From a virus (taxonomy: Duplodnaviria > Heunggongvirae > Uroviricota > Caudoviricetes), in IMG/VR virus record IMGVR_UViG_3300032167_000028: DNA of 42,347 bases; one strand, written 5' to 3'. This document shows, piece after piece, positions 3-26,847 of the stretch (position 1 is its first letter; every line of letters begins with the position of its first letter). Position numbers and translations under genes: made by a program. A model generated the notes under the pieces. That model saw nothing but the letters and a program-made list of their open reading frames with translations, did no database searches and had not been told where the DNA came from.

Positions 3-3000
3 GATATAAAAGATATTGAAATTGCTCTTGAAAAAACATATTCAGGATTACGCTCCAACTTAGAAACTTCGCTAGAAGAGGCAAAAACTGTATTATCTTC
101 CACTGATGAAAATAATGCAATAAAAAAACAAAGTTTAATTGATTCTAATTTTGATATTGCATTGCAATGGGCTTTAGCATAGGGTGCAAGTGAAGATGTT
201 TTAAAAAATCTACCAAAAGAAACTTTAGTTGAAATTTATCTAACTAAACAATATGAAGGTATTGTAGCAGCTTATGATTAGGAAAAGGCATGGTTATTAG
301 AATAGGCTACCTATAATTCTGAGGTTGCTTCTTATGCTCGTGACTTACTAGGTGGAGAAGAGGACCAACGTATTAGAGAATCTTGGGATATTATTAAGAA
401 TACTGGTTTAAACGGTTATAAAGCTACTGATGTTGCAAAAATTACAAAAGATTTAAAATTGCCGTCTGAAGCTTTCATCGCTAATGGTGATGGAACTTGG
501 TAGCTTGATTTAACTAAATTAAATGATATTCCAAAAGATGTTCATAATGCTATTTTAGCTAGTATAGATAATGAGACAGAATCCGCCATTAGAGCCATCA
601 AATCTCTTGGTAGTGAAATGACTGAAGGAGCAAATCCAGGTATTTATGCCGAAGCTTTTTCTCATTATGTTGGAGAATATGGTTATGACGCAGCTGAACT
701 TTATATTCCACAGTTTATTAAAGCTGCGGCAGGTGGATAGACAAATATTCAAGAACATTTAAAAAAGCTTATTGCAGATGAACTTACTGCTAAAGGTGAA
801 ACAGTTTCAGGAATTAACGATCCTAAAGTAATTAAAGTATATAATGAATTAATTGCTGGTTATAATGATGGTATTAATAATAATATAACGCGTTTACTAG
901 AATTATCTCAAAAATCCATTAAAGGAACCTTAACAGAAGCTGAAGAATTAGAACTAAAAGACTTACAACTTGATAATAAGGAATACGCCGAAACACTTAA
1001 AAAAATCATTTCTGATGAAACTTTAAAGATAGCTGAAAAAGCTGCTGCACTAGTTACTGCTGCAGTTTAGGCTTATTTAAATGGTGAGGTTTCTTGGGAC
1101 GAGGCTGAAGCTACGCTTGAAGAAACTTATTTAGGCATGCTAAGCCGCAATCGTAAAAAGCAAACCGGTACTGATGAAAATGCAGAACATGTTTCTTCTG
1201 AGGATCTTGAAGAAATTGCTAACGCTGGTGGTGTCTATAGTGAACAAGCAATATCTGCCCTACTTGCTATGGCTGGTGGAGAAGGTATTACTGTTACAGA
1301 AGAGACTCTTAATGAAGTCATAAAATGGGATGAAGTAAAGAAAGGATGGGTCTTTGCAGCAGGCAAAGGACTTGAAGATCTTTTAGGAGCAGAAATCCCA
1401 GAATATATCAAAAAAGCTGTTGATACCAGTGAAAATGTTAAGGATTTAAATAATAAAGTAAATGCGGAAAATACTGCAAATGCAATTATTGATTCTTTTA
1501 CAAATCTCTATACCAATGCCGAAGAAGCTACTTTAGAGGGTATTAAATCACTATATGACAGTATTTATGGTGAAAATGCTTTTGCTAATTCTGGTGAAAC
1601 TGCTAAATGGCAGGCAGCAATTTAGGCGGCGAAAAATGGTAATGAAGAACTATTACAAAGTCATTTAGAAGATTTAATTAAAGAAGCTCAATCTCAAGGA
1701 AAAATTGTTGATGCTAATGCTTTATCACAAAAAGTTCGTAATTTAGTTTCTTCTGCAATAGATTCGGAATTTAGACAAGCTTCTGATACTATCGCATCTC
1801 TTGGAGCCTCTAAAGCCGCTTCTCGTGGAAATAGTGATCGAGGTATCTATGCAGATGCTTTTTCTGCTTTAATTGAAAAAAATGAATGGGATAGACAAGA
1901 AACTGATAAAAAAATAAGTGGTTTTATTACTGGTGCAGCATCTGGAGATAGTTATAGTAGTTTAGCATTAAAGTAGTATATTGCCGCCAATTTAAGAGCT
2001 ATTGATCCAGAAAATTATAAAAATGTTTATATTGATGATCCAGAAGTAATTCGTCAATATAATTTATTAATGGCTGGTTATAAAGACGGCATCACCAGTA
2101 ATACTCTACGCTATCTTGAACTAGCTCAAAAACAAGCAGAAGGAACTATCACAGAAACGGAAAAACAAGAGATGGCCGATCTTGTTCCCCAAAGTGATCA
2201 GTGGGTAGTTGATTTAGTAAATACTCTAGCACAAGGTGGAACAGATTCATTAAGTAATCTTGCTCTAATTATTTCTAATGCTTTAGCAAATGGAATTGAC
2301 TGGTCTGAGGTTGAAGATGAGGTTCAAAATTAGGCTGAAGGACTTTTCAATACTGAAAAATTAAAGAGTGTTGGTATTAATCCTGGTGATAGCATTACTA
2401 AAGGTAAGCTTTTAAGCTCTATCGTTGATTCCGCGGGTGTATATGGAGAAGAATTATATACTAATTTATATAATTATGCTACTGAAAATGGTTTAAACTT
2501 TAACGAAGAACTTTTTAAACAAGCATTTAACTATAGCTCCATTGCAGGTGGTTTTGTTGCTACAACTTCTGAAGGAATTAGTACATTATTCTCAGGCTGG
2601 GGCTAGGATTTTGTAAAAGCTTTTACATTGGGAAGTAATTCTTTTAACGTTGAAGAAGCTATTCGTTTTGATGATTTAGGTACTTCTGTTACCGAAACTA
2701 TAAGTGGTTTTTATAGCAATATTGCAGAAATTTCTCTTGGAGATTTAGCTAATCTATACGAATCCATTCATGGACAAGATACTTTTGCGCAAAGCGGATT
2801 AGTTGATGATTATTAGGCCGCGATTCGTGAAGCAAAAAGAGGTAATGTTGACCTCCTCACCGATTTTACTAACAATCTAATAAAAGAAGCTAAAGCAAAA
2901 GGAATTGAAGTAGACACTACTGCAATTCAAAATGCCATGTAGGATGCAGCACTTGCTATGATGGCAAGTATTGTTCAAGCTGTTGAAGCTGGTATTGGCG

Positions 3001-6000
3001 GAACAATGACTAATGCTGATTACACTCAACTTTTAAAAGATATCGGTGTTAATTAGTTTGAATCAGATGGTTCCGTTTCTCAGGACTGGGAACGTTGGTA
3101 GAATATGGTCTATTCGACCAACGAAGGATTAAAGTTCACTAAACAAGGCTTGTTGGATATTTATGGAGTAGTTGCTAGTCGTAACGCGATGGCTTCTCAA
3201 GGTATCCTTGAGATGATTGCAGAAGATTATCGTGAATATGATAATTTAAGTTCTACTCTTGCACATATTAAAGAGCTTCGTGATTTAAAAGACAAAGCTG
3301 ATCCAACAAAACGTAAACAGTATGAACAAGAACTTGCAGTTGCAGAAAAAATTGCTCGTATTCGTTCTTAGGATTCAGATAGCTTTAACTTCATGGATCG
3401 TGCAATTCCAGATGAAATTCAGTCTCCTCTTAATGTATGGCAAAATGCAGCAGATGCAGCAAGTGCTTTACAAGATGCTAAGAAAAATGGCTACATGGGA
3501 GCCGAAGATTTCTACCGAATTGTAACTACTGCTAGTGAATATATGACCGCGGCAGGACAAGAATTCTCTGTCGCTGGCATGACTTATGAAGATTTAATTT
3601 CTAAGGCAACAAGCTCTCTTGCTACTGCTAATGGAAATCTTGTAGTCGATTTCTCTAAGTTTGGTGTTGATTTTGCCGGCGGTATTGATGATATGGCTGG
3701 CGGTCTTGAAAAAGGATTAAAAGCTTTAGCTGAAGAATAGATTAAGATGCTAGATGGCTTAATTGCCATGCTAGAAACTCTAAAGACTATTGAAGAGTTA
3801 AAACTTGATCAAGATGGAAACGGTATTGATCTTGGTGAGATTTTTACTATTACAGATGATGGTAGCATTAGTGAATTTACCGACACCTTTACTGAATGGT
3901 GGAAGAGATTACAAACTGCTGTTGGAGAAATCCGCTTTGATAATGGTAAATTTAATCTTGGCGAAGCTTTAGCTAGAGGAATTGTTACTCCAAATCTTTT
4001 ACAAGATTGTAGTAATGAAATATAGCGTTTATTAGCTAGTGAAAATATTGATCCATATACTGTAGATACTCAAATACAAGATATTATTCGTAAATATTTT
4101 GGAGAAGGAGTTACCTTTGGAATTCCTTTTAATACCTAGTTAAGTATTAATAGTGATGGTACATATGCCTTAAATGGTAAAGGTAAATATCCCACTCGCG
4201 AGGCCGCTCTAGAAGCCTATTGTAGAAGTATTAGTCCTGGAGCATGGACATATACTGAAGAAGGAGTTGTTCATACTGTTAAATTTAAGCAGTATGCAGA
4301 AGCAAATACTACTGTTACAATAGATGAATCTAGTGTAGGAACAAGTTATACTCTTGGATCTAAAACTTTTACTGATGAAGCTTCTTTCTTAGCTGCATTA
4401 ACTTCCGGTTCTAATGAAGAGGGTGCAGCGAAAGTTGGAGAAACTGTTACTACGGCCGATGGTGGAAAATATACTGTTAAATATAACGAAGCACTAAAAA
4501 TTAATTATTTAGTTGCCGAGGATGATGCAAGTAAATTTTTAATTAATGGTGAAAGTACAGGATATGCTTCTATCGACGAATATGTTAAAGCATAGCTAGA
4601 AGCTCAGTAGAACGCAGATGGAGAAGGCACCTCTTACGACGTAACCACTACTCTCGGTATTGATGCCTCTTAGGCTGATAAAGAACTTGAACGGGTAAAT
4701 AAAGAGTTAGATGCTTTAGATAAAAAAGCAGTATGGCCAAAAGTATCTATTAATGATAGTACAAAGAGTGGTATTGATGCTATTAATGCAAAACTACTCG
4801 CTCTAACTCGTACTCGTTATGTAGATGTCGTTGTTCGTGAAAAGGCTGAAGAAACTCCAGAAGTTTATGGACCCGTACAACAACAACAACAATCAACTAT
4901 TCCACCCGGTGGTAATTCTGGTCGATGGATTGATCAATTTATGGCTAAGGGTAATGTAGCTCTTGCCAAAGGCACCCTTATGGGAGAACTTGGTCCAGAA
5001 TTATATGTTCAAAATGGTTCTTATCATATTGCCGGTTCCAATGGTCCAGAATTTGTTGATCTGGCAGATGACGCGATTGTTTTCAATCATCTACAAACTA
5101 AACGTATTTTAAACACTGGTCATTCTTTTGGACGCGGAACTCCTGTAACAAACGAGCGTCGTGCGGTTGCTTGGGCAACTGGTAATGTAACCGGTCCCGC
5201 ACTCGCTGGTGGTATTGATAGTGCAATTGAACAACTTAAAACAGCTCGTGAGTTCTGGAAAGGATTACTTAACCAGCTTTCTCTTTCTGAGCTTATGTCT
5301 GGCTCTGGCGGTCACAAAGGTGGCGGTTCTGGTAACAGTATTAAAGCAGTTACTGAAGAACTACAAGAATGGTATAACCTTTCTCGCCAAATTGCTGATA
5401 TTGAGCAAGATATTAACAATCTTCTTGCTGAACGTGAGAATATTGAATGGTCTAATGGTGAAGCTTATTTAAAGAGTTTGCGTGAACAACAAAAGCTTTT
5501 AAATAAGCAAATGGCTACCCAACAAGCACTTCTTGATTATCAAGAACTTCAGCTTCAACGCCAAGCAGATCATATTAATCAAAATCGTATTTGGTCTCAA
5601 TTCTTAACTGTTGGCGAAGATGGATTACTTCAATATATCGAAGGTAATGAAACTAATGGTGGTAAGGGTGCCCTTCAAGTTCTACAAGAACTTAACCAAA
5701 TGTCTGGTGAAGAACAAACTGCTTATTTAAAGCGTATTGGTTATTCTTATACTAATAATGATGGTAAAAAGCTTGAGGGACAAGAACTTGTAGAGCAATT
5801 CTTCCAAGAGTTGCAAGATCAGATTGACCAGTATGATTCTCTTTATGATACCGTTCATGGAACAGAGGAAACTCTTGAAAATCTTCGTACTCAGATTGAA
5901 GATATTAATGAATAGATTAAAGAGAACCAAATGGATCTTGAAGAGGCTGTTTTCGATATTATTGTTGAAGCTTGGGAAAAGCAAATTGAAGAAATGGAAG

Positions 6001-7454
6001 AGCAAGCGGACTTAATTAAGGAAGCCAACGAAGCCTATATTAATGGTTTAAACGAGGCTCTTTCCGCGGAACGTCAGATGTATGATGATAATCAGAAAAT
6101 TGCTGATCGTGAACAACTTCAACGTCAACTTTCTTTACTTCGTCGTAGTGGAGGTTCTGCTTCTGAAATTGCTGATTTAGAAGAGCAATTAAATGATATG
6201 CTAAAGGATGAATACTTTAGCAATCAAGAGCGAATGATTGAGGATATTCAATAGGCAAATGACATTCAAGTACAACAACTTGAAACTCAAATTCGTCTAT
6301 AGGAAGAGGCCCTAGAATATCAAAAAGAGAATGGTGTAATTTGGACTCAAGTTTATGAAGTTCTTTCTAAGTCTCGTAATGAGATTCTTGCTTTTATGCA
6401 AGGTAATTCTACTGAGTTCTTTAGCCAATCCTTATTACAACAAGAGCAAATGCTTACCGATTGGGCGCATAAAATTGGTATTTATAAGGAAGATTAGAAA
6501 TACCAAAATTATGCTAATCATGGACGTGAAACTCTTTGGGACAATGGATAGGCTTGGAATCTTGGAGATATGAGTAAGTATCAGTCTACTTACAATAATC
6601 TCACTGAGGAAGAAAAAAACACAATTCGTGATCAATTTACTTCTGTTTATGCAAATGCTCGTCTTGATGGCAAGAGTCATGAGGAAGCTGCAGCATTGGC
6701 CGCGGCGGAAGTTTCTAAGACTTTGAAGCGTAAAAAAGATGCCGCGGATGCAGAAGATCATACTCCACCAACTACTGATCCAAATCCACAAAATCCTGGC
6801 GGAAATAATGACGATGATGACGATGAGGATGACGGAGGAGGAGGCTCTCAACAATAGCAATAGCAAACTAGCCCTACTCACTGGCGATTTACTTATAACG
6901 GAAAAGTCCGTAAATGCTTTAATCAGAAGTCCAGTGCGGAAAGTGCAATGAAAGAGATGTATGAGGCAGACAAGGCCGCTTTATTACGTACCGCTAGTGA
7001 TCGTCAAGAAATTGATGCAGCTAATGCAACTGCACAAAGACGTTATAATACAGCAAAAAATTCTTTAAAATCTGGTAAACACAGTTCTGGTTATCGTCAT
7101 GGTGGATTAGTTGATTTTACCGGTCCTACAATGGTTCATGGTAGTACCACCAAACCAGAGGGTTTCTTAAATGCTGAATAGACTGCAATTATTAGAGAGG
7201 GTCTAGAACTATCAGGTGAACTAAGTTCGTTATCTAATTTAAGAAACTTGGTAGATGTTTTGAAGAGAAATGTAAAAAATACTGTTGGCGCTGTTAGTGA
7301 AATTAATAATATTAATATTGCTTCTGGAGCTGTTGTTGTATAGGTACAATAGCTTAATGATAAATATGATATTGATGATGTAGCAACAGATATCATGAAT
7401 CGTATGTATGCCATTGGTAATAAATCCACTAATCGTGGAGTAAGTCGGAGGTAA
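3..7454 (+). CDS. Tail tape measure protein, 5' end outside the window (>2,480 aa, about 30 in-frame TAG read as Gln)
   Basis: Ten ORF-track fragments (1137 to 6948) are all in frame 3 and all end in TAG. The frame first meets TAA at 7452-7454. The sequence is largely helical/coiled-coil with TMP-type C-terminal motifs (KGTLMGELGPEL; GYRHGGLVDFTGPTMVHG...PEGFLNAEQT), and it sits directly before a Dit-like gene. Confidence 0.88.
540..3000 (+). repeat. Approximately 400-aa (about 1,200-nt) diverged tandem duplication inside the tape measure gene
   Basis: Paired motifs at a constant offset of about 1,200-1,218 nt: GIYAEAFS/GIYADAFS, AGYNDGINNNITRLLELSQK/AGYKDGITSNTLRYLELAQK, LYDSIYGENAFANSG/LYESIHGQDTFAQSG, LIKEAQSQG/LIKEAKAKG. 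Confidence 0.85.
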
Positions 7455-7460: not shown

Positions 7461-9017
7461 ATGGGTATTCAAGTTACTGAATTAACCCAAGGAAAAAATT
7501 GCCACGAAAAGGAGTTCATCGACTTTGAATTCGATGGAAAACATGTAAGTGAGTTTGGCATGGTCGCCGTCGCGGACGGCGACCGCCACTCCTTTGATGC
7601 CGCTCCAACTTTTGAAGATGAAACTTCTTAGGTGAACGGTATAGATGGGCAATATTATTGGGGCACACATTTTGGCTCAAAAAAGATGACTTTTTCTTTG
7701 GCAACAGATGGAATGACTGAAGCACAAGTAAATGCTTTTAAATTACATTTTAAGCCGGGTAAGTATGGTAAATTTATTGAAGATAAACTTTCTAGTCGTT
7801 ATGGATATGCTCGTATTAGTTAGGTAACAACTTTTAATACTGTGCCTTTCCGCGTTGAAAAAAAGATTATGGGACAAACTATTTATATTAATGAATATAA
7901 AGGAGATTGTCGTATTACTTTTGAATTTGATGATCCTCATATGAAAGCTACTATGAATCTAATTGAAGATTTCGCAGAGGATAATGAATTAAAACTTCGT
8001 GCTATGTATACGAACGGAACTCCATATTCAGCAAGCTGGAATAGTAATAATAATTATGTTTGTTTTGTGGGTAGCAATGAAAAAATTCTAACTAAGGGTG
8101 CTGTGTCACCTTTAACCAGCGGCGGTCTGAGTAGCCAAAGTGCTCTTACTTATTATAATCCAGCAACCAGTAAAACTAAAGCTATTATTCAAATGAAATT
8201 CCAACCAACCTTTACTGCTGATGGAGAGACCACCGTATCTTTCCCAATTTATTTTCATGAAATTAGAGATGATATTAATAGCAATACTTTTCCTTATAAT
8301 CGTATATTAACTACAGTTTCAGTTGATAAAGATATTGTACGTACATCTTGTGACTATCCAAAAGAATTTAAATATACTACCCCCAATGTGATTTAGCAAA
8401 TTAATCACGCTATTGAGCTTGCGGCAAGTTTTTACATGAAATCTGCTACCGGCCCTGCGTTGGATTTTGAAGAACTTTTACGCTTAGAAATCGTTGACTC
8501 TAAAGTTATGGCTTGGGCTGCGGCGGTTTTAAGAATTATAAAAACACGAGATGCTTTTTATAATCGTAATACTGGTAATTTTAATTCGGGAACTTTATCT
8601 GTTAATTGCTCGTCAATTGGCGCGGGAACTCAGGGATTAAATTGGTGGCAATATTTTAATGTATATATGTTATATATGTTAGCCAATTGTGCAGATCCAG
8701 AAAAATTCCATCTTGAAGGAGAAGCTGAAGGTACTTGGACTTTCAATCCTTACACAATTACTTTTAATGGAGAAGAGAATCGTACATATATGACTTATTC
8801 TTATAATAGAATTATCAATATATTAGAAAAAATTTCCGTAGCAGAAGAAAATTGTGGAGACATGATTCTTTCAGAATACCTTAACTTAGATGGAGGAGAT
8901 GTACTAAATGATGATGGTACAATTGCTTCTTGTCATCATATGAAGTTTATAAAAGGTGAGGGTACTACCCACACTGCAAATTGGGTATCTTTAGTATATA
9001 CACCAACTTATTTCTAA
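7461..9017 (+). CDS. Distal tail (Dit)-like protein, 518 aa, 3 in-frame TAG
   Basis: ATG 7461 with GGAGG RBS. The N-terminus FIDFEFDGKHVSEFG...VNGIDGQYYWGTHFGSKKMTFSL resembles siphophage Dit proteins. TAG at 7629, 7821 and 8394; TAA stop. Position immediately after the TMP gene. Confidence 0.7.
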
Positions 9018-12000: not shown

Positions 12001-14540
12001 TTTTTATCAACGACTATCTTATGGGCGTTTCCGCCGCGACTGGTTACATTAGTGGAATTACCTATAAATTAAGCAATCCACAAGATGACGAGATTGAAAT
12101 TAAAAACTATAAAACAAAGTTTGAGGATCTTTTTAGTACCATTACTGCTTCCAGCGAAGCAATGAGAAATAATCAAGTTGCTTACAATATTGCAGCGGGA
12201 AGCTTTAATGCTGATGGTACAATTGAAGGTTCGGTTCTACAAAACTCTATTCTTAACAACAATATTGCAATGAATTATTCTAATACTAATGTTGCAATAG
12301 ATGATGTTAATGGTATTATTCTTACCAATCAACAGCCTTATCTAAATGGTGTTTATGGCCAGGTTAAACTGATGGGCGGCGGCATATTCCTATCAAATGC
12401 TATTGATGGATCAGGTGCTCGTATTTGGAACACTGGTATTACTCCTAATGGTATTAATGCCGCGATGATTACTGCTGGTCAATTAGATGTAAATAAGATT
12501 CGTGTCTTTGCTGGCGATAATGTTGCATTTCAATGGAATAGTGAAGGTATTTTTGCTTATAAGCAAAATGAAGAAACTGGTTCTGTTGACTTAAATACCT
12601 ACGTAAGATATTCTGATAGAGGTTTATAGTTTGTAAGTGGAGAGCATACTGCAGTAGATTTGGGTTGGAATGGTTTACTTATTTCTACTCAAGATGGTGC
12701 TACTCAATTAACCGGTGAGTATGGTTTAACAATTTATGATGGAGAACCAGAAAATGATGAAGAAACTGGTCTTCCACTTAATCCAGTTGTGCGTATTGGT
12801 AAGTTTGAAGAAGAAGGTTAGCCTATTGACTATGGTATGCGGCTTTATAAACAAGATCCAGAAACAAATGAATACCATGAAACGCTTATTACTTCTAATA
12901 AAGGATAGCTTTGGTTAAAAGATTACATCATTGTTGGTATTGAAGAAACTGATGATGCTGGTAATATTAATATTGCTGGGACTTCTGGAGTAACTGATGG
13001 CTTAGCAGGTGCCATACTTGATGGTGGAGATGCCAATGAAGATCCAACTGTTGATAATGTAGTGGTTTATGGTGGAGATTTTGCTGGTATTTCTGGCGAA
13101 GTTGAAGCAACAGCTGGTAAGTCCGTAAGATTTTGGGCTGGCGATAGTTTTTCCAACCGTAGAATTGCGCCTTTTCAAGTTTGGTAGGATGGTACATTAA
13201 TTGCTGATCGTGGTATTATTAGAGGTACTATTTATGCAAAAGACGGTGAATTTTCAGGTGCTATCAATGCTGAAAGTGGTAGTATTGGTGGCTGGATAAT
13301 TAATAAGGATACTGACGAAGAAACTTCTATTGAAATTGATTATTTAATGAGTGAAGATGGTAAGACCAAATTATTTGGTAATGGCGATATTCGTATTCAA
13401 GTAGGAGATAATTTTTCAATTACCGAAGATGGAAAAATTACTGCAAAATCTGGACAAATTGGTTCTTTAACTATTAGTGATATTGATGCTTTAGGTGGAG
13501 ATATTACTACAAATTCTGCAATATTATCAGTTGAAGGTTTAACCACGGTAAAACGAGGAGAAGCTGTTGATGCCAATTTTGTTGTTTCTTGTTATCGAGG
13601 AAATATTTTATTTACAGATATAGAATATTTGGATTACGATGTTTTACTATGGTAGTATAATGATGGTTCTGGTTGGAAAGATTTGTATAATACACAAATT
13701 ACTTTAAATCTAAATAGAACTTATGATTATAACGAAGAATTATCATAGTCAACTTATATACGTTGTATTTTTAAAAATGATAATGAAGAAATCATTAGTA
13801 ATGAGTTATTATTAACTGCGATTACTGAAGATGAATCAAATGCCGTAATTTTTTCGATTATTACTCCAAATGGCAATATCTTAAATAGCTCTAATACTGA
13901 AGTTATTTTAATTGCTTCTTTAGTTGAAAATGGTGTTACAATAAATGAAAATATAGAATATATTTGGGAAAAATATGATATTGAAAATAAAGAATATATT
14001 GAATTAAGTAATGAAAAAACCGATTCTTTAAGTGTAACTATAAAAGATATAGATAGTTATGGTTCATATAGATGTAAAGCTATCTATAATGATAATATAT
14101 ATTTAGCATATGGTTCTGTTCAAGATAGTACTGATCCGTTACAGTGTTATCTATATAGTACAATAGGTGATTAGATTTTAAATGGCGAAGGAATAGGGGC
14201 GGTTTATGCTCGTTCTTATCGAGGTAATTTAGAAGTGGGTCCTATAAAAACGACTATTTTTACTACTTCATTAGACGAATCTTTAGAAAGTGCTTATGTT
14301 TATATTCTCGATAATGAAAATAAAACCTATAATCTTTATTTTAATAATGATGGCGTTTGGGAATTAGCAGAGGATGATACGAGTGTAATTTATACTTATT
14401 CTTTTAGAGATAAATACGGAAATGCTACTACTTATAAAGGATAGAATTATTATATCGGACGAGTATTATATATTGATAGCGAACTTATTGAAGGTAAAAT
14501 TATTATAGATGTTACTGCTGAAGAAGCTGTCATAACTTAA
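9036..14540 (+). CDS. Large tail-tip/baseplate hub (Tal-like) protein, 1,834 aa, many in-frame TAG
   Basis: TTG start 6 nt after GGAGGG. Frame 3 stays open with TAG=Gln to TAA 14538-14540. Contains a coiled-coil segment, tail motifs (GINAAMITAGQLDVNKIR; VRFWAG...APFQVWQDG) and a C-terminal Ig-like region. Third gene of the TMP-Dit-Tal order. Confidence 0.72.
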
Positions 14541-14557: not shown

Positions 14558-17530
14558 ATGGCCAAAGCTTTTAGTTCTATAACTATTACTGAAGTTAATG
14601 ATGGTCAAAATGGTACAACCTTAGTTTGGAAGGGTTCCTATGCCTCAGTTGCAGATTTAATTGAGGCATAGGGATCTCCAAAAAATGGTTGGGCTTATTA
14701 TGATATAGGATTAAAGGGCTCTTATATCTATCAAGATGGTTCTTGGTTTTTACTTAGTCAAGATGGTTTAGATGGAGATGGAGCAAATTAGATAGTTGAT
14801 ATCCGCTATAGTGATAATTTAAATGATAAACATTTTACAACCAATGATAATGGTGAGGAAGATGGCCTCACTTTAGGAAAATATATTGGTTTTCGACTTG
14901 TTGAAAAAAAGCCTACAACTGAAGAGCTATAGGGAACTTTTGATGATTATTCATGGAGTTCATTAGAAACAACTGTTGATTTTAATTTATCTTTTTATAT
15001 AAAAACTAGTGCGCAAATAATTAATCATCAAGTCGATAAAAATAACGTTTATGCTTGTACACCGGATGAAATAAAAATTGAGTTTTATGCCGAAGCAAAT
15101 GCAGAGCGTATAGTCTTAAATAAAGATTTATATTGTTTTGATATAAATTTTTATTATGAAGATGGTTCAATAGATAATAAATATATTAAAGAAGATTTAA
15201 GTGAAAGTACATTTGAATTATCTTTATCTAATATTAATCAAAAAATTAATTAGATTGATATTATTTTATATGAAAAAAGGGAAAATATTGGTATAAATGA
15301 AGACGGACAAGAACAAGTAAGTATAATCCACAAAATTTAGGCATCTTCAACTATTATTGGTATTTATGAAATGACAAAAGAATTAGCTATTTTTTAGGTG
15401 AATGCTGATTCAATTGTCTAGTCAATTGGTGAAACAAAATTAACGTTTAGCGATAAAGGATTAACCGTTGCTAACGGTGCTTTAACAATTTTAGACAAAA
15501 ATTCTGTACCAGTTTTTTATACTGTTGATGGCGATTTAGTTTTAAAAGGCACTATTTATGCTGAAAATGGTGAATTTGGTGGTTGGGTTATTAAAAAAGA
15601 ATAGTTCTCTTCAAGCAATAACAAAACTATTTTTTATAGTGGAGCCGGTATGAATTATCATGGGTCTTCAGCTAGAATATTAACAGGTTTACGCGAAACT
15701 CAGGCTCTCGTTGAAGACGATGAAGAATTAAATTATTCTTTTATTGTTACTGATAATGGTTATCTTTATTGCGCAGATGCTAATATTACCGGTGATATAC
15801 ATGCTATAAATGGTTCTATTTTAAATTTCTTTAAAATTGGAACAGAAGATAGTTTCCGAGGTATCACAATTTATGGTGGTAATAATGAGAACGATAGCTA
15901 TATAGGTTCAAATAATTTTAGTTCTGGTACATTTGGCTATGGTTGGAATATTAGTGGTGGCGGTACAGCGGAATTTACTGATATTCGTGCAAGAGGAAAA
16001 ATATCAAGTTCAGTTTTTGAATATCAAAAAACAAGTTCTATTGGTGGTAACTTATATATTACTCCTACTATTTATTTCGAACAAGCTTCTAGTCCGATTA
16101 AAACAGAGAATGGAAAATTTGTAGTTACTTTAACTCATTCCTCTTCTGATATTAAAGGTATTAGTGGCCGTGCTTGGAAAGAAAAAGATGAAATTCGTTT
16201 AGAAGGTATTGCTGTTTTAGAGTCTAATAAAAATTAGGTTATATTAAACAATGTTGTAGGTTATATTTAGAAAATTGAAGTTATTAATAATGAAACAAAT
16301 ATTGAAGTTGTTTTTGAAAATGAAAAATCATTAAATGACTATATTTTAATCGAAGGTACTCTTTTAATGTTTTATGGTGCTTGGGATGAAGCTACTTAGA
16401 AAATACAACAAAGTGGTATTTATTTAACAGCTTCTGAAGAAGCTTCTCCTTATATTGATGTTTATGATATTAGTACAGATGGAAAAGTTAAATATAGTCC
16501 TGCGGTACGATTAGGAAATCTTTCTGGAGTTCGCAATGATATTTTTGGTACGGAAACTGGATATTTAGAAGGTTTTGGTTTATATAGTTCTAATGCTTAT
16601 TTAACCGGTGAATTAATTTTACCAAATGCTGGAATTACCAATCAATAGAAGGTTGGTTATGATGGTTTAGAAAATTATACTTCTATAAACGAAGATAGTT
16701 CGAACGCTATAAGAATATGGGCTGGCGCGGAAAAACCTAAATCAGATAGTGAAATAATAGCACCTTTTATTGTTACTTAGGATGGTTCTTTATATGCTAA
16801 AAAAGGAGTCTTTTAGGGCACTGTTATAGCAGAAAACGGTTATTTTAATGGAGTTATATAGGCCGCGGGAATCATTTTAGATAAAAACACAGATTATACC
16901 TCTCCTGAAATAGGAAAAGATCACTTTTTTGTTGGTTATTCTCAAAATCCTGTTTCTTTTGATGATTATGTTTTAAATATAGGTAAAGATGGAATATCTA
17001 TTTGGGAAGGTGCTCTTCGTGCTTTTAGTGATTTTGCAAGTATAAGTACAAATGAAAAATATACCCATAAAATTTATGGTTATGATAATACTTAGAAATA
17101 TACTCCTCTTCCCTATTTTTTCTTAGTAGATGCTGTTCACAATATTACGTCAGAGGGTTTATCACTTGATAATAGAGTAGTAAATTATAAAAATCATATT
17201 TTTTAGTTAGATGAAAAGTATCAATGGTCTTCGGTTCTTTTAGATAATGGTATTTGGTTTTCTAGCGGTACAAATGAAGATTTTATTCTACAAAATAATT
17301 TAGATACATTAGAGAAAAAAGCTTATGAATCTCATGGAAAAATTGGTATTTATGAAAAAGAAAATAAACTTAATATAAGAAGTGAAGAAATAATTCTTGA
17401 AAATGAAGATATATATTTTAATGGTTATTTACACTTAAATAATAATAGTTCTAATGATATTTCAATTAGTATCGGTAATATGCTAATTCAAGAAGTCGAT
17501 AGTACTATTGAAGGAATCAATTTTATATAA
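14558..17530 (+). CDS. Minor tail / tail-spike-like protein, 990 aa, many in-frame TAG
   Basis: ATG 14558 with AAGGAGG RBS. Frame 2 stays open with TAG=Gln to TAA 17528-17530. Beta-rich tail motifs (GTIYAENGEFGGWVI; IRIWAG...APFIVTQDGSLYA). Confidence 0.7.
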
Positions 17531-17543
17531 AGGAGAAAAAAGG

Positions 17544-20500
17544 ATGAGTTATAGTGTTGGCGCGATTTATAGCGCAGATGGAATAGCTTTAAGTGGAAAG
17601 CCTGGTACCAGTTCCAATTATGCCACAGCCTATTATGGTGGTTATGACGGAACTTGGCCTTCTAGTAGTAATTGGTCTGGATATAAAATTAATTCGGTAT
17701 CAGTTGGTTTTGAGATAGAAAATTATATGTCTTCAACAACAGCTTATATTACATTAGAATTAAATGGAAGAACTTTAGTTGATTCATATCCTATTAGCGC
17801 AGGTACTAGAGTTGATGTTACTTAGTCAGGACCCACTTCAGGTTATTTAATATAGGCTTTATTAAATGGCAATTCTATTTCAATTACCGGCGATCGTAAT
17901 ACTTCTACTGGTAGTGGAACTTTTTTACAATTTAAATCAGATATTTCTGTTTCGATTAATTATGAGTTACCTAAAACATATACGGCTTGTTCTGCTCCTA
18001 CATCAGTTACAGCTAGTTCAGAAAATGTAATGCCTGGTGGAACTTTTACTCTTAGTTGGAGTGGTGCATCTGGTGGTACTAATACTTCAATTTCAAAATA
18101 TGATATTTACCGCAGTACTTCAAGTGATAGCGGCTATACCAAGGTTTAGACAGAATCAAGTTCTCCAGCTCCTGTTACAATTCCAGATTCAAATGGAACT
18201 ACTTATTATTATAAAGTCTAGGCTATTTGCTCTGATACAGACTATAATAGTAGTTTGTCAACTAATTATGCCACAGTAAAAGCTACTGCCACTTCTCCAA
18301 CTATTTCTACTTTTACTATTGCTGGTCAATCTTCTAATGTTTATATTGGAGGATCTACTTAGTAGGTAACTATTAAATGGAGTGGAACAGGAGGAACAAA
18401 TAATAGTATTGTAGGGTATATATTAGTAGATGCAACTACTGGAACAGAGTAGTCATTTAGTTCAGCTGAAACATCATATACAACTACAGTTACAGTAACT
18501 GCCGGCCATACTTATTATGGTAAAATTAAAGGTTCTTATAGTAATAGTGATAGTTCTAATCAAATTACTGTAGAAGCTTTAGCCTTAGATACTAATATTA
18601 CGATTACTTCAAATCCTACTACTGGTAAAATTACCTAGCGTAATATTAATTTGTCTTGGAGCACTCCAACAATTACAACAGGAAAAATTTCTGGTAATAT
18701 CACTTATACAATTAGCTATATTAGTGACGCATTAACAGGTGATTTAGTTTCAAAAATTACGACTACTAATACTACAGTAACATTACCAACAACAATACAA
18801 TCTGGTGTAAGCACTATTTTATGGTTGACTATTTCAGCAACTGCAAGAGATGGAGGAAGTAATACTTGGACGGTAACTATTGGAGAATATACATTAACAG
18901 GTTTACCTAATGCACCAACAATTACTAAATTGTATGATACAAAAGGACCAAGTTCTATGTTAAATGGAATTTAGTCTATTGGTTATAAATATATTAAAAT
19001 TCATTTTTCTCCTGCTACGCAAAATAGTGCCAATGGTTCTGGAAGTAATTTTACTTATAAACTTCGTTATTGGAAAAATAATGAACCATATAAAACTGAA
19101 AATCTTTCTGTAAGTGGTACTGCTACTGAAATCGTTTTAGACCGTGATCTTGAAAGTGATTATGATTTATCCTCTAATTCTACAATTAACTTTTAGATAG
19201 AGGCTACAGACGAATATGGCACACCAGCACTTTCAAATAATGTTTCTATAAAACGTTTTTCTTTGCCAACAATTACTTGGAATAATTGTTCTATTACTCA
19301 AATAAATGCTTCAAATTTTTCAGTGCCTATTGGTAATAAAATAACCGGTGCTTTTTCTGGAATCATTCCTGCAGCGAGTGGTTCAACAAAAGTTATTTAT
19401 TCTTTGAAAGTAAGTTATAATAATTTTATTGCAGAACACTTAAATTCAATAAATGGCTCTTTTTCTAATACGAATTCTAATACTTTTACAACTACGGTTA
19501 CTTGTCCAACTTCTTTAGATGTAAGTAATAATTTTTAGACTGCTTTATTCCAGGAAGTATTAAATAATAATAATCCAAAACCATCTGGAACATTAATTTT
19601 AACTTATTATTATGAAGGTTTTTCTACTTATACCGCAACAAGTTTGTACTCTTTCAATTTTAATTTTATACGAACTTTAGGAGCGTTATCTTCTGAAAAC
19701 TATTTAGTCCATTATTCCAATAATCGAACTTATTTTAATCCTTTTGAAACAATAACAATTACTTGTAAGGATTTGATAGATTGGACTGGAGCTTCTGGAG
19801 AAAGAACTTATCCTGGAGCTACTATAACTAAAACAATTAAAAGAAATAATAATAACTTATCAATTAATAGTGATAATCAAATCAATGATAGCTATGATTT
19901 ATATACTGCATCAGAAGTGACTTTAAACTATTATTTAACTTATAATATTGCTTATAATAATAATGAAGTAACACCATTATCATCTACTATTATAATTTCA
20001 GTACCAATTTATAGATGGTATGAAGATAAGCATTCTTTAACTAAAGTAAGTATTAATAATAATAATTTAAAAGGGTCATTATTATTACCTAATTTATTAT
20101 GTAGTCAAAGTGGAGTTAATTTAAAAAATAATACGACCACTTCAACTAAAGAAATTTCTTATAGTTTAATAGATTTAAATTAGAATAAAATTTTATAGGA
20201 TTGGACAGCACTTACGAGTACTGAAATTGATTTATTAACAGTAAACTTCCAAAATATCCAAATAAACTCAACCAATTTATCACTGTAGGCAAAAATTAAA
20301 TATGTTAATACTTCTAACAATACAGAAACAAATTTTTTAATTGTAAACTCTAATACTTTTGTTATTCGTGAAGGTGGAGCAACTTTTGCAATACGCAAAG
20401 GACGCTTAGGAGTAAATGTTGAAAAAGATTTTGGTGTTTTAGACCATGGGGAAACAAATGTTCCAACTATTAAAATTAATTAGTAGAGTAATAGTACTAA

Positions 20501-20879
20501 TGCAATAATAGATATGGATGCCAATGAAGAAGGAATTGGTTTTAATATATTTAGAGTTGGTGCAAATGAAGTTGGCAGTATTAAAAAAACTTCGGATAAT
20601 AAAAATATTGTTATTTCTGGCCATATTAAAAAAATATCTACTTTTATTAATTCTTCTAATTGGAATAATAATATTTATACAATTTATGATGCTGATATAA
20701 CTACAACTTCTTTGTAGGAAATTTTACCATCACCATCTATTACAACAGAAGAATTAAAAACTTTTTAGAAGGCCAATATAATTGGAGGAACTTAGCAAAA
20801 TGGTAGCTGTACATTAATTTGTCATGGTAAAGTTCCTAATATAGATATACCAATTCTTTTAATGATACAAGGAGGTTAA
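17544..20879 (+). CDS. Ser/Thr/Asn-rich tail protein with fibronectin type III-like domains, 1,111 aa (candidate adsorption protein)
   Basis: ATG 17544 after AGGAG. Frame 3 stays open with TAG=Gln to TAA 20877-20879. FN3-like pattern APTSVTAS...FTLSWSG...YDIYRST...TYYYKVQA. The C-terminus CTLICHGKVPNIDIPILL resembles the ends of Bacillota phage tail proteins. Confidence 0.7.
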
Positions 20880-20887
20880 AGGAGTAT

Positions 20888-21970
20888 ATGCCAACAATTG
20901 TAAGAAGTGGTGGCGGCGGAATGGATGTTTCTGCCGCAAATGCAACCAGAAGTTAGGTGTTATCTGGAGCTACTTTTTATAGTAATGCAAGTGATGATAT
21001 ACAAACTGGCACCATGAGTAATCATGGTACCAAACAAATTAATGTAGGAGATACTGGAAGTGCTGGATATTATTCTAGTGTTAGTATTAATGCCAGTTCT
21101 TTAGGAAATGCTACTGCTGGTCATGTTTTAAGTAATGCAACTTTCACGAATACCAGTAAAAAAACATAGTCTGGTTCTATTGTCATTAGAAGTGATCCGA
21201 ATGGAACGGTTAGTGTTGGAGGCACTTATAAAAATACAAATGCTGGTTATTATTCTAGTATTACAGTAACTGGTCCTACCTTATCTGGCAATGCCGAGGC
21301 TTCTCATGTTTTAAGTGGAAAATCTTTTTATTCTAATACTGGAACAATGATTAATGGTTCAATGGCAAATTATGGAGCATTAACTGGTTCTGTTACAGTT
21401 GGAGGAACTTATACAAATACTAATGCGGGTTATTATTCCAGTATTAAAGTAACGGGTCCAACATTATCTGGAAATGCGACAACTTCAGATGTTTTAGTTA
21501 ATAAAACTTTCTATTCTACAAGTGGTACTTAGCAAAAAGGTACAATGACCAATCATGGAGCAGTATCTCAGGCAGCACCTTTTACTGGTGGTGCGGGTTA
21601 TTATACTAGTATTACAGTTACCGCGCCTAGCGTTAGCTTAACAGGTAATGCTTCTTCTATAGATGTAGTATATCCGTATACTTTTTATAATACTTCTACA
21701 ACTCGTAGAACCGGTTCTTTTAACTATTGGTATGATCAAGGATATATTATAACAACAAGTTGGTCTTGTAAAACCCTTTCGTTTACACCTGTATATTATG
21801 GTGCTTCTATTAATGAAAATGAGGATGGAGATAGTACAGCAGGATCAGGTTTTGGCGGTTATCATAAAAAAACTAAATGTTATGTTAAAGGTAATGTAAT
21901 TTATTGGTGTCATGCGGGCACTAGTAAAACCCACTGGGGCTGTGTAGTTGCTATTGGGGCGGTAGATTAA
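20888..21970 (+). CDS. Tail fibre-like protein with internal repeats, 360 aa, 3 in-frame TAG
   Basis: ATG 20888 after GGAG. TAG at 20954, 21167 and 21530; TAA at 21968-21970. Repeated unit GNAxxxxVLxxxTFY...GTMxNxG...AGYYSSI. Last gene before the terminator. Confidence 0.7.
20936..21720 (+). repeat. About 4.5 imperfect repeats of roughly 55-63 aa in the tail fibre gene
   Basis: Recurring (G)NAT/E..(H/D/Q)VL..(T/S)F(Y) and AGYY(S/T)S(I/V) motifs. Copies 3 and 4 are close even at DNA level (gttggagg.acttata.aaatac.aatgc.ggttattattc.agtatta). Confidence 0.85.
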
Positions 21971-21999
21971 AAGAGGGAGCTTAGGCTCCCTCTTTTTTT
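21969..21999. terminator. Bidirectional intrinsic terminator at the convergence of the two arms
   Basis: AAAAGAGGGAGC-TTAG-GCTCCCTCTTTT perfect 12-bp inverted repeat with T-tracts on both strands. Confidence 0.9.
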
Positions 22000-22952: not shown

Positions 22953-22969
22953 AATTCCTCCAATAAAAT

Positions 22970-22991
22970 AACCGCACATCTCTATGCGGTT
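22970..22991 (-). terminator. Hairpin, possibly a weak terminator, just upstream of the GT2 RBS
   Basis: AACCGCA-(8 nt)-TGCGGTT followed on the - strand by ATTTTATT and then GGAGGA. Confidence 0.5.
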
Positions 22992-22999
22992 TTATATAA

Positions 23000-23383
23000 T
23001 TACTCATCAATGAAATCTTCAATTAAAATCATTTGAGCAGGAGTAAGATCAATCTTTTCAAGCATGGAAAAATTAATCTTAGAACAATTTAATTCAACCT
23101 TCTCTTCAAGGAAAGCCCGCATTTCAGTGACATAATCTTCAATACCTTCTTTCTTAATAATGTAATTACCCTTTTCATCGGTAGTGAAGGTTCCGTCTTC
23201 ATTCTTGGCACCATAGGTATCGAGCATTTTATGTTGAACCACTTCAATAGATTCATATTCTTTATCAACAAGCTTTAACATTTTCAGAATACTAAATGCC
23301 TCACGAGCTGGCATTGAAGTATTAGCAAGTTTCTAAAGAACTGGCTTAATAGTTAAAAGACTTTCAATAGTTGTCGTAATCAC
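23000..23383 (-). CDS. Hypothetical phage protein, 127 aa (possibly DUF1617-like), 1 in-frame TAG
   Basis: GTG 23383 with GGAG RBS overlaps the upstream TGA (GTGA). One TAG (VLQKLANT) joins the N-terminus to the ORF-track fragment. The family resemblance is by eye only. Confidence 0.65.
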
Positions 23384-24126
23384 AGTATTTCGTCTCCCCA
23401 TTCAAATTGTTTTTTTATAGTAGCAACCTTTGGTACAAATTGCTAAGCAAAGTAATAACCCAAACAAATAGCATCCGCTTCATCCTATGTGGCTTTTATA
23501 TGATACATAAGCCGCACATAATTCTACGCCTATTGTTTAGCATTTTCACGCTCTTCTCCAGAACAAATTCCAAGATATGAACGCCAAGTAGAAGAATAAG
23601 CTAACTTGTTGTCGATTTTCTTTTCATAAAGATAATCTAACAATACACCTTGTAAATTAGCTAGCGTCTAAAACATTTTTACATTCTTCTAATACTGAAT
23701 ATTTTCCACACCTACTGCATCAGGACAAGTTTTTTCTATTACAGAATCAACCCATCTTTTTAATTCATTAATGCGGCCGGTTGAATTAGCAAATTCATTG
23801 GTAGTAAAAGTACCATAATCTACTAATTTTTTATCATCAAAAATTGCGTATCCGGTTGTGCCGGTTGCGGCATCAAGAGCAAGAACTCTCATTCTTGTAT
23901 CTTTACCGCGAGCAGGTAATTTATTTCTTGTTACATTTCCATTAGAAAGTTTTACACACTCTTCGCAAATGTGATGCTTACGCCAATTATCATAAGTATC
24001 ACTAACCTAATGCCCCTTTGGACAAATAAAATTCAAAGGGGTTTTTAAGTTTTTATAAGTAGTAGAGATAAGCTACCATCCAGCCGCCTCTACATCTGAC
24101 TAAACAGTATAAATATTAATTGCCAC
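23380..24126 (-). CDS. ruvC: RuvC-like Holliday junction resolvase with an N-terminal zinc-ribbon domain, 248 aa, 9 in-frame TAG
   Basis: RuvC motifs VLALDAATGTTGYA, VGVE and QDEADAICLG are contiguous only if TAG is read as sense. N-terminal CPKGH...CEEC. GTG start overlaps the dUTPase 3' end; TGA stop at 23382-23380. Confidence 0.82.
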
Positions 24127-24931
24127 TAGAACCGAACCCGCCTTCACCGCGATCGGTGTTTCGTTCTACATTATCAACAACGTGATAACGTGCTTTGTAA
24201 CTCTTTTCAAGTCCCATCTGAACAATTCGATCACCAGCTTTAATTTCAACTGGAATATTACTGAAATTGTCAAACAAAACTTTTAACTCACCACGATAAG
24301 TCTCATCAATCGTACCAGGACTATTGGAAAGACGAAGTGGTGTCTTATGACTCATGCCACTACGAGGACGGAAAGAAATCATCCAACCATGAGGGATTGC
24401 TACTCGTAGACCAGTTGGAACCATGACGCCATAACTACCGGGCTGAATAGTCATATCTTCTACTGCATAAACGTCGGCACCCCAATCAGTATCATGAGCA
24501 TAAGTAGGAAGTTTAGCATTTGGATGACAAAGTTCAACAGCAACATTGAAAATATCACGATTAGTGATCTTATTAATTGCGGTTAAGATGTAAGCTTCAA
24601 TGAGAGACATAAACTCGTCACAGAACTCACACTTATTAGGCTGGTCTTTATACTTTTCCTTAATCTCTTCTATTACACCAGAAAAGAGTTCAACCGTATG
24701 AGATAGTTCCTGAACATATACATCTAATGTAAATCCATTCTTATCTCCTTCAATTAGAAGCTGATCAATTGCTTGTTCTGCTTCAGGGCCTGAATAAGCT
24801 TTAGCGATACTATTGAGTAGCTCTACTTTCATGTCGCCAAAAAGCTCGTCATCCGTATCTTCAAAGATTTTAAGAAGTTCATTCTTAAAACCTTCAATTG
24901 CCTTTAAATTAGTATCAATTACATTATCCAT
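24116..24931 (-). CDS. dut: Trimeric dUTPase with an acidic helical N-terminal extension of about 125 aa
   Basis: Motifs GADVYA, PTGL, RPRSG, SPGTIDETYRGE, GDRIVQ and RGEGGFGSSG. No TAG. Confidence 0.92.
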   Translation of the reverse strand: MDNVIDTNLKAIEGFKNELLKIFEDTDDELFGDMKVELLNSIAKAYSGPEAEQAIDQLLIEGDKNGFTLDVYVQELSHTVELFSGVIEEIKEKYKDQPNKCEFCDEFMSLIEAYILTAINKITNRDIFNVAVELCHPNAKLPTYAHDTDWGADVYAVEDMTIQPGSYGVMVPTGLRVAIPHGWMISFRPRSGMSHKTPLRLSNSPGTIDETYRGELKVLFDNFSNIPVEIKAGDRIVQMGLEKSYKARYHVVDNVERNTDRGEGGFGSSGN

Positions 24932-24933
24932 TA

Positions 24934-25131
24934 TTACACCTCATAGGACATTTCAATAGTAACAACATACCACATATCTACGATCTCGCCCTTAGACTTC
25001 CTAGTCTTAACAGTATATCCGCCTTTGGTTACGGTAAAACCGCCCTTGTTCTTATATTCTTCGATCATAGAAATTGCTTCATTTTCATCAGTAACTTTCC
25101 AGACCTTAGTTTCCCTCATCAGTTCGACCAT
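24934..25131 (-). CDS. Small hypothetical phage protein, 65 aa
   Basis: Packed between neighbours with an overlapping start. TAA stop, no TAG. Confidence 0.75.
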   Translation of the reverse strand: MVELMRETKVWKVTDENEAISMIEEYKNKGGFTVTKGGYTVKTRKSKGEIVDMWYVVTIEMSYEV

Positions 25132-25495
25132 TTTCGTTATTCTCCTTTTTAAATTCTTTTTCTTTTTCTGCTGCTTTTACTTTTAGATTTTCATAAAGTG
25201 CTTTATATAAATCTTGTCTAAACTGTGGATTCTGTTTAGCATAATTTTCAGTTTCTTGGAACATTTGTCCCAAAGCTCTCAAACCACGCTTGCGGCCTTT
25301 TGCATTCATCATTCGACGACGTTCTTTTCGATTAGGGATCCAAACATCATCGGGCCGCTCACCTGGCTTAGCTGGCTCCCATAGATCCTGTGGCTTAGTA
25401 TTTTCATCAATTACTGCTTTTGTATAAGTAATTTCCTTACCATCAATTATAACTGTTAAAGGCTCAGTATTTACTTCTGTATTAATTTCACTCAT
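25106..25495 (-). CDS. Hypothetical protein with an Arg-rich PNRKERRR motif, 129 aa
   Basis: ATG 25495 has a GGAGG RBS and is preferred over the ORF-track start at 25522. TAA stop, no TAG. Confidence 0.75.
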   Translation of the reverse strand: MSEINTEVNTEPLTVIIDGKEITYTKAVIDENTKPQDLWEPAKPGERPDDVWIPNRKERRRMMNAKGRKRGLRALGQMFQETENYAKQNPQFRQDLYKALYENLKVKAAEKEKEFKKENNENGRTDEGN

Positions 25496-25496
25496 A

Positions 25497-25889
25497 TTAA
25501 GCCTCCAGCGACATAAAGTCAATTACAACAGGAACACCAAAACGTTCTGTTAGAAGTTCCTCTAAAATAGTACGGGCATTATCGACACAAAGATTTATGC
25601 GGCGACTCGCAATTTTAAAATCTTCATTGAAGATATCCTTTAGACCTAAATAAGAAACTTCGGTTTCTTTAGCTTCACTTGCGTGCTTCATACCTGCAGA
25701 ACGATAAAAATCATCTTCTGTAGAAAGAATTGTATCTCGTCTAAAAACTGCTTGACGAATTGTTTCAGTTGTTTTACCTTGACCCGCTTCGGCAATAAGA
25801 TATACAACAGGATCTTCACGGTCTCCCTTTGGACAATGAACACAGATTCTTTCTCTTACATCGAGTGGAACAATTTGATTAACTAACAT
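25497..25889 (-). CDS. Small P-loop NTPase-like protein, 130 aa
   Basis: Walker A-like AEAGQGKT and Walker B-like INLCVDN. GGAGG RBS; TAA stop. Confidence 0.65.
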   Translation of the reverse strand: MLVNQIVPLDVRERICVHCPKGDREDPVVYLIAEAGQGKTTETIRQAVFRRDTILSTEDDFYRSAGMKHASEAKETEVSYLGLKDIFNEDFKIASRRINLCVDNARTILEELLTERFGVPVVIDFMSLEA

Positions 25890-25890
25890 A

Positions 25891-26847
25891 TTAACCTCCG
25901 GCCTTTTGATTATATCCTAATTTTTCAGTAGAGAAGAAATTGATATAATACTTTTCACGTTCATTTAGTTGCTCTTTAGAACATTCTTCAATAAGTTCAA
26001 AAGTAAAATTCCAAATTCCTTCATCGCGCATTGCTTGATGAACTCGCTAGTCCGCGATTGTACTTATACCAACTGAACTTTTTATATGGTCAGTTAAACG
26101 TTTTCTTACAGAAGTCGAACGACCAATATATGCTTGTTTTGTTCTATCATTGGTAATTTTATAAATACCGCTACATTCGCGGCTTGGAAGAATATAATCA
26201 AGCATTTCATTAGCTTTCTTTTGGATATATTCCGACCAAATTAATTTATATAAAATATCGGGATTTCGTAACTCTTCTGCTACATGATTAAGTAAATAAT
26301 TAATGTCAGAACGATCAGAAGAAGATATTTGAATATGACGGTTTAAATCTTTTTCTTCATCACTCTATGAGCGTTGTACTGTTTCAATAACAGAAAGATA
26401 TTTACTTCTTTCACTCTCTAGCTTTGCGTCCATTTGAGCAAGTTCATTTTTTACTTCTTCATTTTTTAGACGCATAAGAGTCTGATGTTGAGTATTTAAT
26501 TCTTGAATCTTTTCAGCAAACTCTTCACAAATTTTTGCTTTTTCAATTTCATTACTATCTCGTACTGTTTGCAACGAAGCTGATAAAGCTTTTAATTCCG
26601 CGGTTTTAGCAGAAATATCTGTTTCAAGTCTTGACAACTCTTCTTGCTTATCAAGATTAAGAGTTTGATACATTGATACCGTAGTTAGGGCATCCGCGAG
26701 ATCTCGCTCAACTTCAGTTAAAGTATCCTGTCGATTCCGAATTTTCTGGTTTAAATTTTGTAAAGTTGTTGTTTTATTATACTTTACGCGATAATAAAAT
26801 GTTGCTGCAATAACTATAATACATAAAATTAAAAGTATTATTCCCAT
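25891..26847 (-). CDS. Membrane-anchored coiled-coil protein with a C-terminal GIY-YIG endonuclease domain, 318 aa, 2 in-frame TAG
   Basis: Hydrophobic N-terminus MGIILLILCIIVIAATFYY and a long heptad region, then after TAG (26367-26365) SGIYKITN...AYIGRS...RKRLTDH...LNEREKYYI...GYNQ. TAATG overlap at the start; the TAA stop lies 1 nt before the next ATG. Confidence 0.85.

Follow-up and report, generated by a model that had tools for sequence, protein, structure and literature searches.

TAG as a probable glutamine codon in ten genes of a faecal tailed phage with a long-armed tRNA(CUA)

Introduction

The recoding of TAG to glutamine in phages, with a bias towards late and lysis genes, has been surveyed (Borges et al., 10.1101/2021.08.26.457843). 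In crAss-like phages, it was proven at the peptide level (Peters et al., PMC9523058). Phage tRNAs(CUA) were assayed in a cell-free extract of E. coli, and most of them produced a mass shift that the authors interpreted as Gln, a residue nearly isobaric with Lys (PMC12636597). The members of the proposed genus Phassvirus, to which phAss-1 belongs, share 80-86% nucleotide identity (PMC10607447). Here, we analyse a stretch of 42,347 nucleotides of a tailed phage (IMG/VR record IMGVR_UViG_3300032167_000028), hereafter the window, in which ten genes contain in-frame TAG codons. An earlier note, made from the sequence letters of the window, had claimed that TAG is reassigned to glutamine and that ten genes are hidden from standard annotation; it also described amber-to-glutamine recoding as already known in gut phages, with which the literature agrees. 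The window corresponds to positions 23840-66186, on the reverse strand, of a single 174,462-bp virus record with a completeness of 100% (CheckV). Positions are those of the window, unless genome positions are indicated.

Results

TAG is a sense codon in ten genes

When the region 1-26883 was read with the standard bacterial code (table 11), the longest open pieces did not exceed 414 codons. Stop-free frames of at least 150 codons covered 32% of this region with table 11 and 96% when TAG was treated as a sense codon, compared to 39% with TGA and 57% with TAA as sense; the ten hidden genes of the earlier note were borne out by this comparison. The longest frame free of TAA and TGA in 50 shuffles was 217 codons. 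The ten genes read through TAG harbour 113 in-frame TAG codons in 8366 codons and not a single internal TAA or TGA. The reading frame is preserved across every TAG, and the genes end with TAA (nine genes) or TGA (one gene). Ribosome-binding sites of the GGAGG type were present upstream of the starts at 7461, 9036, 14558, 17544 and 20888. These data demonstrate that the ten genes use TAG as a sense codon.

The region 26884-42347 was covered to 96% under both codes. The 13 TAG-free genes of the window (this block plus three genes at 24116-25889) had no in-frame TAG in 5454 codons, and off-frame TAG was common in them (84 and 71 occurrences in the two remaining frames). The features of the window are the following:

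3-7454, plus strand: giant tail protein, C-terminal 2483 codons of a 4022-codon open reading frame (ORF); 31 TAG; ends with TAA (whole ORF at genome 58733-70801, 64 TAG in all)
7461-9017, plus strand: tail-module gene, 518 aa; 3 TAG; GGAGG before the ATG; ends with TAA
9036-14540, plus strand: tail protein, 1834 aa; 20 TAG; TTG start behind GGAGGG; phrog_3267 (E 1.7e-17)
14558-17530, plus strand: tail protein, 990 aa; 17 TAG; motif APF..[TAG]DG in common with the preceding gene
17544-20879, plus strand: tail-fibre-like gene, ~1111 aa; 19 TAG, including 18219 in YKV[TAG]A
20888-21970, plus strand: 360-aa gene; 3 TAG; ends with TAA
21981-22979, minus strand: family-2 glycosyltransferase (GT2); 7 TAG; PF00535 (E 1.7e-14)
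23000-23401, minus strand: gene of 127/133 aa; 1 TAG; phrog_1401; GTG start at 23383 overlapping the TGA of the RuvC-like gene (GTGA)
23380-24171, minus strand: RuvC-like resolvase of Holliday junctions, 263 aa; 10 TAG, of which three fall in nearly invariant Q columns
24116-25889, minus strand: three TAG-free genes amid the recoded ones (dUTPase 24116-24931; 25106-25522; 25497-25889)
25891-26883, minus strand: GIY-YIG endonuclease, 318 aa from 26847 (start as in relatives); 2 TAG
27141-42347, minus strand: early-type block readable with the standard code; no in-frame TAG; all stops TAA or TGA
27141-27689, minus strand: NrdG-like activase, in the early-type block
27694-29955, minus strand: anaerobic ribonucleotide reductase NrdD, in the early-type block

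The tail-fibre-like ORF is open from 17508 and probably starts at the ATG at 17544, which is preceded by AAGGAG; the GIY-YIG ORF is open from a TTG at 26883. All coordinates quoted by the earlier note were correct, including the junctions, namely the GTGA overlap at 23380-23383 and the succession GGAGG, TAA, T, ATG at 25893-25889. The ORF 25497-25964 is not recoded, and the true start codon of this gene is the ATG at 25889.

The recoded block extends past the window and occupies ~39 to 85 kb of the genome, with additional TAG-bearing genes elsewhere. Between 40 and 85 kb, the coverage per 5-kb bin rose from 0.14-0.87 to 0.81-1.0 with TAG as sense. The terminase and portal genes carry TAG. The bias of recoding towards late genes is not strict: there are head-module ORFs without TAG, and the two nucleases and the GT2 are rich in TAG. 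Four consecutive head-module ORFs (149, 348, 183 and 473 aa; genome 75570-79121) have no TAG at all. In the adjacent portal-terminase block (genome 79133-86172), 11 of 13 TAGs fall in the initial 20% of the respective ORF; a number of them may be artefactual, the ORFs having been extended upstream of the true start.

Relatives, RuvC columns and codon usage point to glutamine

The codons of this phage were compared with those of 70 loci, drawn from IMG/VR and from contigs encoding GT2 homologues, some of the latter being 93-97% identical to the window over the aligned parts. Sites in conserved context (local identity of at least 0.8) were considered, and each site was counted once. At 29 sites, TAG in a relative was opposite a sense codon in this phage: 19 of these sense codons encode Gln (11 CAA, 8 CAG), and the other ten were K (3), E (2), A (2), S, P and L (one each). 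The Gln background in these proteins is 3.0% (binomial p ~1e-22 for 19/29). As two mutations separate CAA from TAG, mutational nearness does not account for this preference, which reflects the amino acid. The TAGs of this phage, analysed in the same conserved context, were paired with TAG (34 sites), CAG (3) or ACG (1), the TAG position being retained at 34 of 38 sites.

At a local identity of at least 0.94, all five in-window substitutions involving TAG were exchanges with CAG or CAA (26047, 23695, 12330, 12906 and 13185). One relative (L073) has CAG where this phage has TAG at 12906, 13185 and 26047-26049 (the last in the GIY-YIG gene), and TAG where this phage has CAA at 12330. The earlier note had placed TAG in a QDG motif shared by two tail genes: the TAGs at 13185 and 16778 are indeed both in APF..[TAG]DG, and the former is the site at which L073 has CAG. 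The TAG that it reported in YKVQA is also there, at 18219 (YKV[TAG]A).

The RuvC-like gene had 491 homologues, 120 of which were aligned. The columns of its TAG codons 161, 168 and 216 were Q in 113, 113 and 118 of the 120 homologues respectively. The database homologues that were checked (five) had been called with TAG as Q, hence their codons were read directly: in the DNA of these five genes (47-62% identical) the three columns contained TAG, CAA and CAG only, plus one AAG. The resolvase was TAG-recoded (3-10 TAG) in every relative checked (L193-L197), down to 47% identity, indicating an old recoding of this non-structural gene that has been conserved within the lineage.

Codon usage was also altered in the recoded genes. 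The CAG/CAA counts were 92/90 in the TAG-free genes vs. 29/204 in the TAG-bearing ones; the ratio fell 7.2-fold, compared to 2.6-fold and 1.35-fold for the control pairs AAG/AAA and GAG/GAA. When TAG was counted together with CAG, the counts were 142/204 and the fall was reduced to 1.47-fold. CAG has been largely replaced by TAG in the recoded genes.

In the GT2, the earlier note had located a TAG at the conserved QT. This is codon 37, which lies in a conserved Q-T motif and is opposite CAA in the phage's own TAG-free GT2 paralogue; compared with solved GT2 structures, the position is Q (Q-T or Q-D motif) in two of three distinct sequences. Two database proteins, P0001 (98% identical) and P0002, have Q at every TAG of the GT2. 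They were rejected as independent evidence, because their contigs yield these proteins only when TAG is read as Q, which is the gene caller's choice. An internal duplication of the giant protein, also quoted in the earlier note, was read directly: CAG at 1611 (..WQAAI..) is opposite TAG at 2814 (..Y[TAG]AAI..). This duplication was not reported by self-BLAST at E 1e-5.

The phage tRNA(CUA) has a glutamine-type acceptor stem and a second hairpin

The earlier note proposed a search for a tRNA with a CUA anticodon, a release factor or a glutaminyl-tRNA synthetase (GlnRS). The first was found, with a tRNA-Gln acceptor stem; the other two were not: no release factor 1 (RF-1), PCRF or Glu/Gln-tRNA-synthetase domain was detected in the complete genome, while the control genomes responded. 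The phage appears to rely on host enzymes and its own tRNA.

The only tRNA(CUA) among the 35 tRNA genes of the genome is located outside the window (genome 165322-165419, 98 nt) and scores 54 bits with the Rfam tRNA model, which assigns the CUA hairpin to the position of the anticodon arm. In the acceptor stem and the discriminator (U1-A72, G2-C71, G3-C70, G73), this tRNA agrees with the phage tRNA-Gln(UUG) at 13 of 15 positions, compared to 10 of 15 in the next best of the 35 tRNAs. Both ARAGORN and Rfam assign a 24-27-nt arm to the variable region. This arm is a 5-bp hairpin, TACGG[CUCUGAC]CCGUA, and the anticodon loop of the phage tRNA-Gln is CUUUGAC.

An IMG/VR scan with the same anticodon arm gave 116 loci and 37 distinct long CUA tRNAs. 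A hairpin of the Gln-anticodon type (at least 3 bp and a 7-nt loop N-U-[C/U]UG-[A/G]-N, with CUG or UUG) was present in 19 of these 37, and in 0 of the 67 Ser/Leu/Tyr tRNAs examined from phage loci. The stems of these extra hairpins covary while the loop is constant, and the distance from the extra-arm loop to the T stem is 8-10 nt, the normal spacing of an anticodon loop. A long CUA tRNA whose extra-arm loop contains CUG was also present in a relative with a 65% identical terminase.

We infer that the extra hairpin is a retained or duplicated Gln anticodon arm which may help to keep glutamine identity. The Gln identity of the tRNA(CUA) probably rests on the acceptor stem together with this hairpin. 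A tentative proposal, to which we give slightly less than even chances, is a two-hairpin tRNA in which the CUA hairpin would read UAG, while the spare Gln loop and the Gln-type acceptor would let the glutamine-charging enzyme of the host accept the molecule. The literature searched contained no description of a second Gln-type hairpin in a suppressor tRNA (coverage was incomplete and novelty is unproven).

Two further observations concern tRNA genes. A 95-nt tRNA-like gene (genome 138339-138433) has good acceptor, D and T arms and no canonical anticodon arm, ARAGORN assigning it a 2-nt 'anticodon'. Long-arm CUA tRNAs with G1, Ser/Leu-type D arms and no Gln-like loop were present in five other phage contigs (L125, L137, L079, L141 and L143); in those phages, they may be genuine amber suppressors that insert Ser or Leu.

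A gene of the lysis type, with SpoIID and SH3 domains and 5 TAG, is located at genome 162961-164445, ~0.9 kb upstream of the suppressor tRNA. This proximity is reminiscent of other recoded phages, in which code-change genes have been reported to be linked to lysis cassettes.

Weighing of the alternatives

Taking the relatives' codons, the RuvC columns, the codon usage and the tRNA together, the claim of the earlier note that TAG is sense, and glutamine specifically, was supported. Judging by these sequence comparisons, we consider TAG to be a glutamine codon in the ten genes, a recoding of the type known in phages, with a probability of roughly 0.93.

Several observations weigh against this reading. 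The residues opposite TAG at poorly conserved sites are mixed (E, K, T, A), which is expected for variable positions. The BLOSUM sum over all TAG sites without identity filter was higher for E (20.3) than for Q (16.2); Q leads once the local identity is at least 0.3, and the unfiltered lead of E reflects variable sites and the abundance of Glu. The tRNA(CUA) is formally of the serine type (long variable arm, G73, location beside tRNA-Ser(CGA)). Three small ORFs (genome 88078-88503, 100749-101597 and 128888-129319) have a single TAG 3-5 codons before a TAA or TGA; in these, TAG may be a true stop early in infection, a short tail being added once the suppressor is active. 'Reassigned' may really mean time-dependent suppression. 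Finally, no RNA run was listed among the runs containing the stretch 14558-20879.

The alternative that survives best, although improbable, is that TAG stands for glutamate, or for a mixture of Glu and Gln, in a host without GlnRS that has a non-discriminating glutamyl-tRNA synthetase (GluRS) and incomplete amidation. Glu is the second commonest partner of TAG, and the homologues of GT2 codon 116 are almost all E; Q and E, however, exchange easily in any protein. At conserved sites there were 19 Gln vs. 2 Glu, despite a 2.4-fold greater abundance of Glu in these proteins. The near-invariant columns of the RuvC-like gene are occupied by Q and not by E, and the codon deficit is in CAG and not in GAG.

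Serine is a far weaker candidate, with perhaps one chance in a hundred. It is suggested by the type II build of the sole tRNA(CUA), that is, the 24-27-nt arm and the discriminator G73, and by an anticodon arm similar to that of the neighbouring tRNA-Ser(CGA). Nevertheless, Ser codons were opposite TAG at just 1 of the 29 conserved sites, compared to 19 for Gln, and there is no Ser in the conserved RuvC columns. The acceptor begins with U1-A72, as in tRNA-Gln, vs. G1-C72 in the three serine tRNAs of the phage, and the extra arm bears the Gln anticodon loop that is absent from all 67 Ser/Leu/Tyr tRNAs.

That the TAGs are true stops, in genes that are decayed, fragmented, wrongly assembled or interrupted in a way other than recoding, is scarcely conceivable: table 11 annotation would report just such fragments, but 113 TAG stand against no TAA or TGA in 8366 codons (shuffles reach 217 codons at most), the frames and 34 of 38 TAG positions are kept, the sequence recurs identically in four other runs (see below) and a matching tRNA(CUA) is present.

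Source phage, relatives and neighbouring genes

The source is, by its sequence, a tailed phage of animal faeces with a terminase like those of SPbeta and Geobacillus virus E3, and the host is probably a member of the Firmicutes. The large terminase shares 31-40% identity with its counterparts in Geobacillus virus E3, in Alicyclobacillus phage KKP_3916, in SPbeta-like Bacillus phages and in Enterococcus phages. The stretch 14558-20879 is contained in a dozen animal faecal or gut metagenome runs, and had zero letter differences from contigs of four other faecal metagenome runs, indicating that the TAGs are not an assembly error.

IMG/VR contained 62 related loci. A scan of viral contigs with the 990-aa tail protein gave no relatives of that protein; relatives of the tail module were obtained instead via a look-up of the GT2 (L072-L076). 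In eight relatives (L046, L054-L057 and L059-L061), the terminase match is split and spans 2.4-2.9 kb, compared to 1.9 kb here, suggestive of an inserted intein, intron or homing endonuclease in the terminase genes of these relatives.

The giant 4022-aa protein is tape-measure-like by position and size; it had no Pfam or PHROG match, and these two databases gave nothing for most of the tail proteins. In four faecal metagenome runs, contigs fuse position 17367 to 20166 via 14 other letters. There seems to be a co-occurring variant in which ~2.8 kb of the tail-fibre-like gene are missing or replaced, and this poses the question of a swap of the receptor-binding module.

Discussion

Proposed mechanism and significance

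The division of the genome lends itself to a temporal scheme. The tail module, the two nucleases, the glycosyltransferase and, elsewhere in the genome, further late and lysis genes are written with TAG as Gln, the replication and nucleotide-metabolism genes being readable with the standard code. The early TAG-free genes would be translated by the standard machinery of the host. After infection, the phage tRNA(CUA) would accumulate and would be charged with glutamine by host machinery, its Gln identity probably being given by the tRNA-Gln-like acceptor stem and by the second hairpin with the loop CUCUGAC. The charged tRNA(CUA) would then outcompete the host release factor 1 at UAG, and genes with 1 to 64 TAGs would become fully translatable only once the suppressor is present. 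The result would be a gating of late genes, as proposed for other recoded phages.

Unless TAG is read as Gln, ~27 kb of the window and ~45 kb of the genome are annotated as debris. The genes lost to standard annotation comprise the 4022-aa tail protein, the tail fibres, the two nucleases, the glycosyltransferase and, elsewhere in the genome, the lysis-type gene. With this phage, the recoded phages would gain a lineage with a terminase of the SPbeta/Geobacillus-E3 type. The replacement of CAG by TAG, confined to the recoded genes, is an internal signature of code drift. If the spare hairpin is an identity element, it would explain how TAG retains its glutamine meaning in phages that encode no synthetase and, if true, would be a natural design principle that separates the decoding by a tRNA from its charging.

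Comparison with known systems

The tRNA can be compared with two kinds of known tRNA. The identity set of the E. coli supE (glnX/glnV) tRNA-Gln(CUA) is U1-A72, G2-C71, G3-C70 and G73. The phage tRNA has the same acceptor set and the CUA anticodon, and supE inserts Gln at UAG; however, supE is an ordinary 75-nt tRNA with one anticodon change, while the phage tRNA has 98 nt and a hairpin with a CUG loop. With the class II tRNA-Ser, and with suppressors and allo-tRNAs of the Ser type, it shares G73 and a long arm between the anticodon and T arms. Unlike them, it has a Gln-type acceptor and a conserved extra-arm loop, and TAG is not aligned with Ser.

The phage resembles phAss-1 and the proposed Phassvirus (PMC10607447) in being a large siphovirus-type genome of gut viromes, in having TAG in the genes of the terminase, the tape measure, the portal and the tail fibres, in its tRNA-Sup(CTA), in TAG being Gln and in the lack of a dedicated synthetase. 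It differs from phAss-1 in its terminase (34.6% identical over 88% of the length), in genome size (174 kb here vs. 136 kb) and in the number of suppressor genes (one here vs. three). By the terminase protein identity of 34.6%, it lies outside the genus Phassvirus, in a related wider group.

Finally, the code 15 phages (crAss-like, Lak, Garnet/Amethyst/Topaz) likewise have TAG in structural, lysis and some DNA-handling genes and early genes in the standard code, together with a phage tRNA(CUA), TAG aligned with Gln, a low-GC genome and TAA as the main stop. At the level of sequence, this phage has all of their defining features. It differs in that it belongs to another lineage by its terminase, that no release-factor or synthetase gene was found in it, and that its suppressor has a second hairpin of the Gln-anticodon type, which we did not find described in the literature searched. 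The phenomenon is known and the window is a clear further example of it; the spare glutamine hairpin alone goes beyond the known picture.

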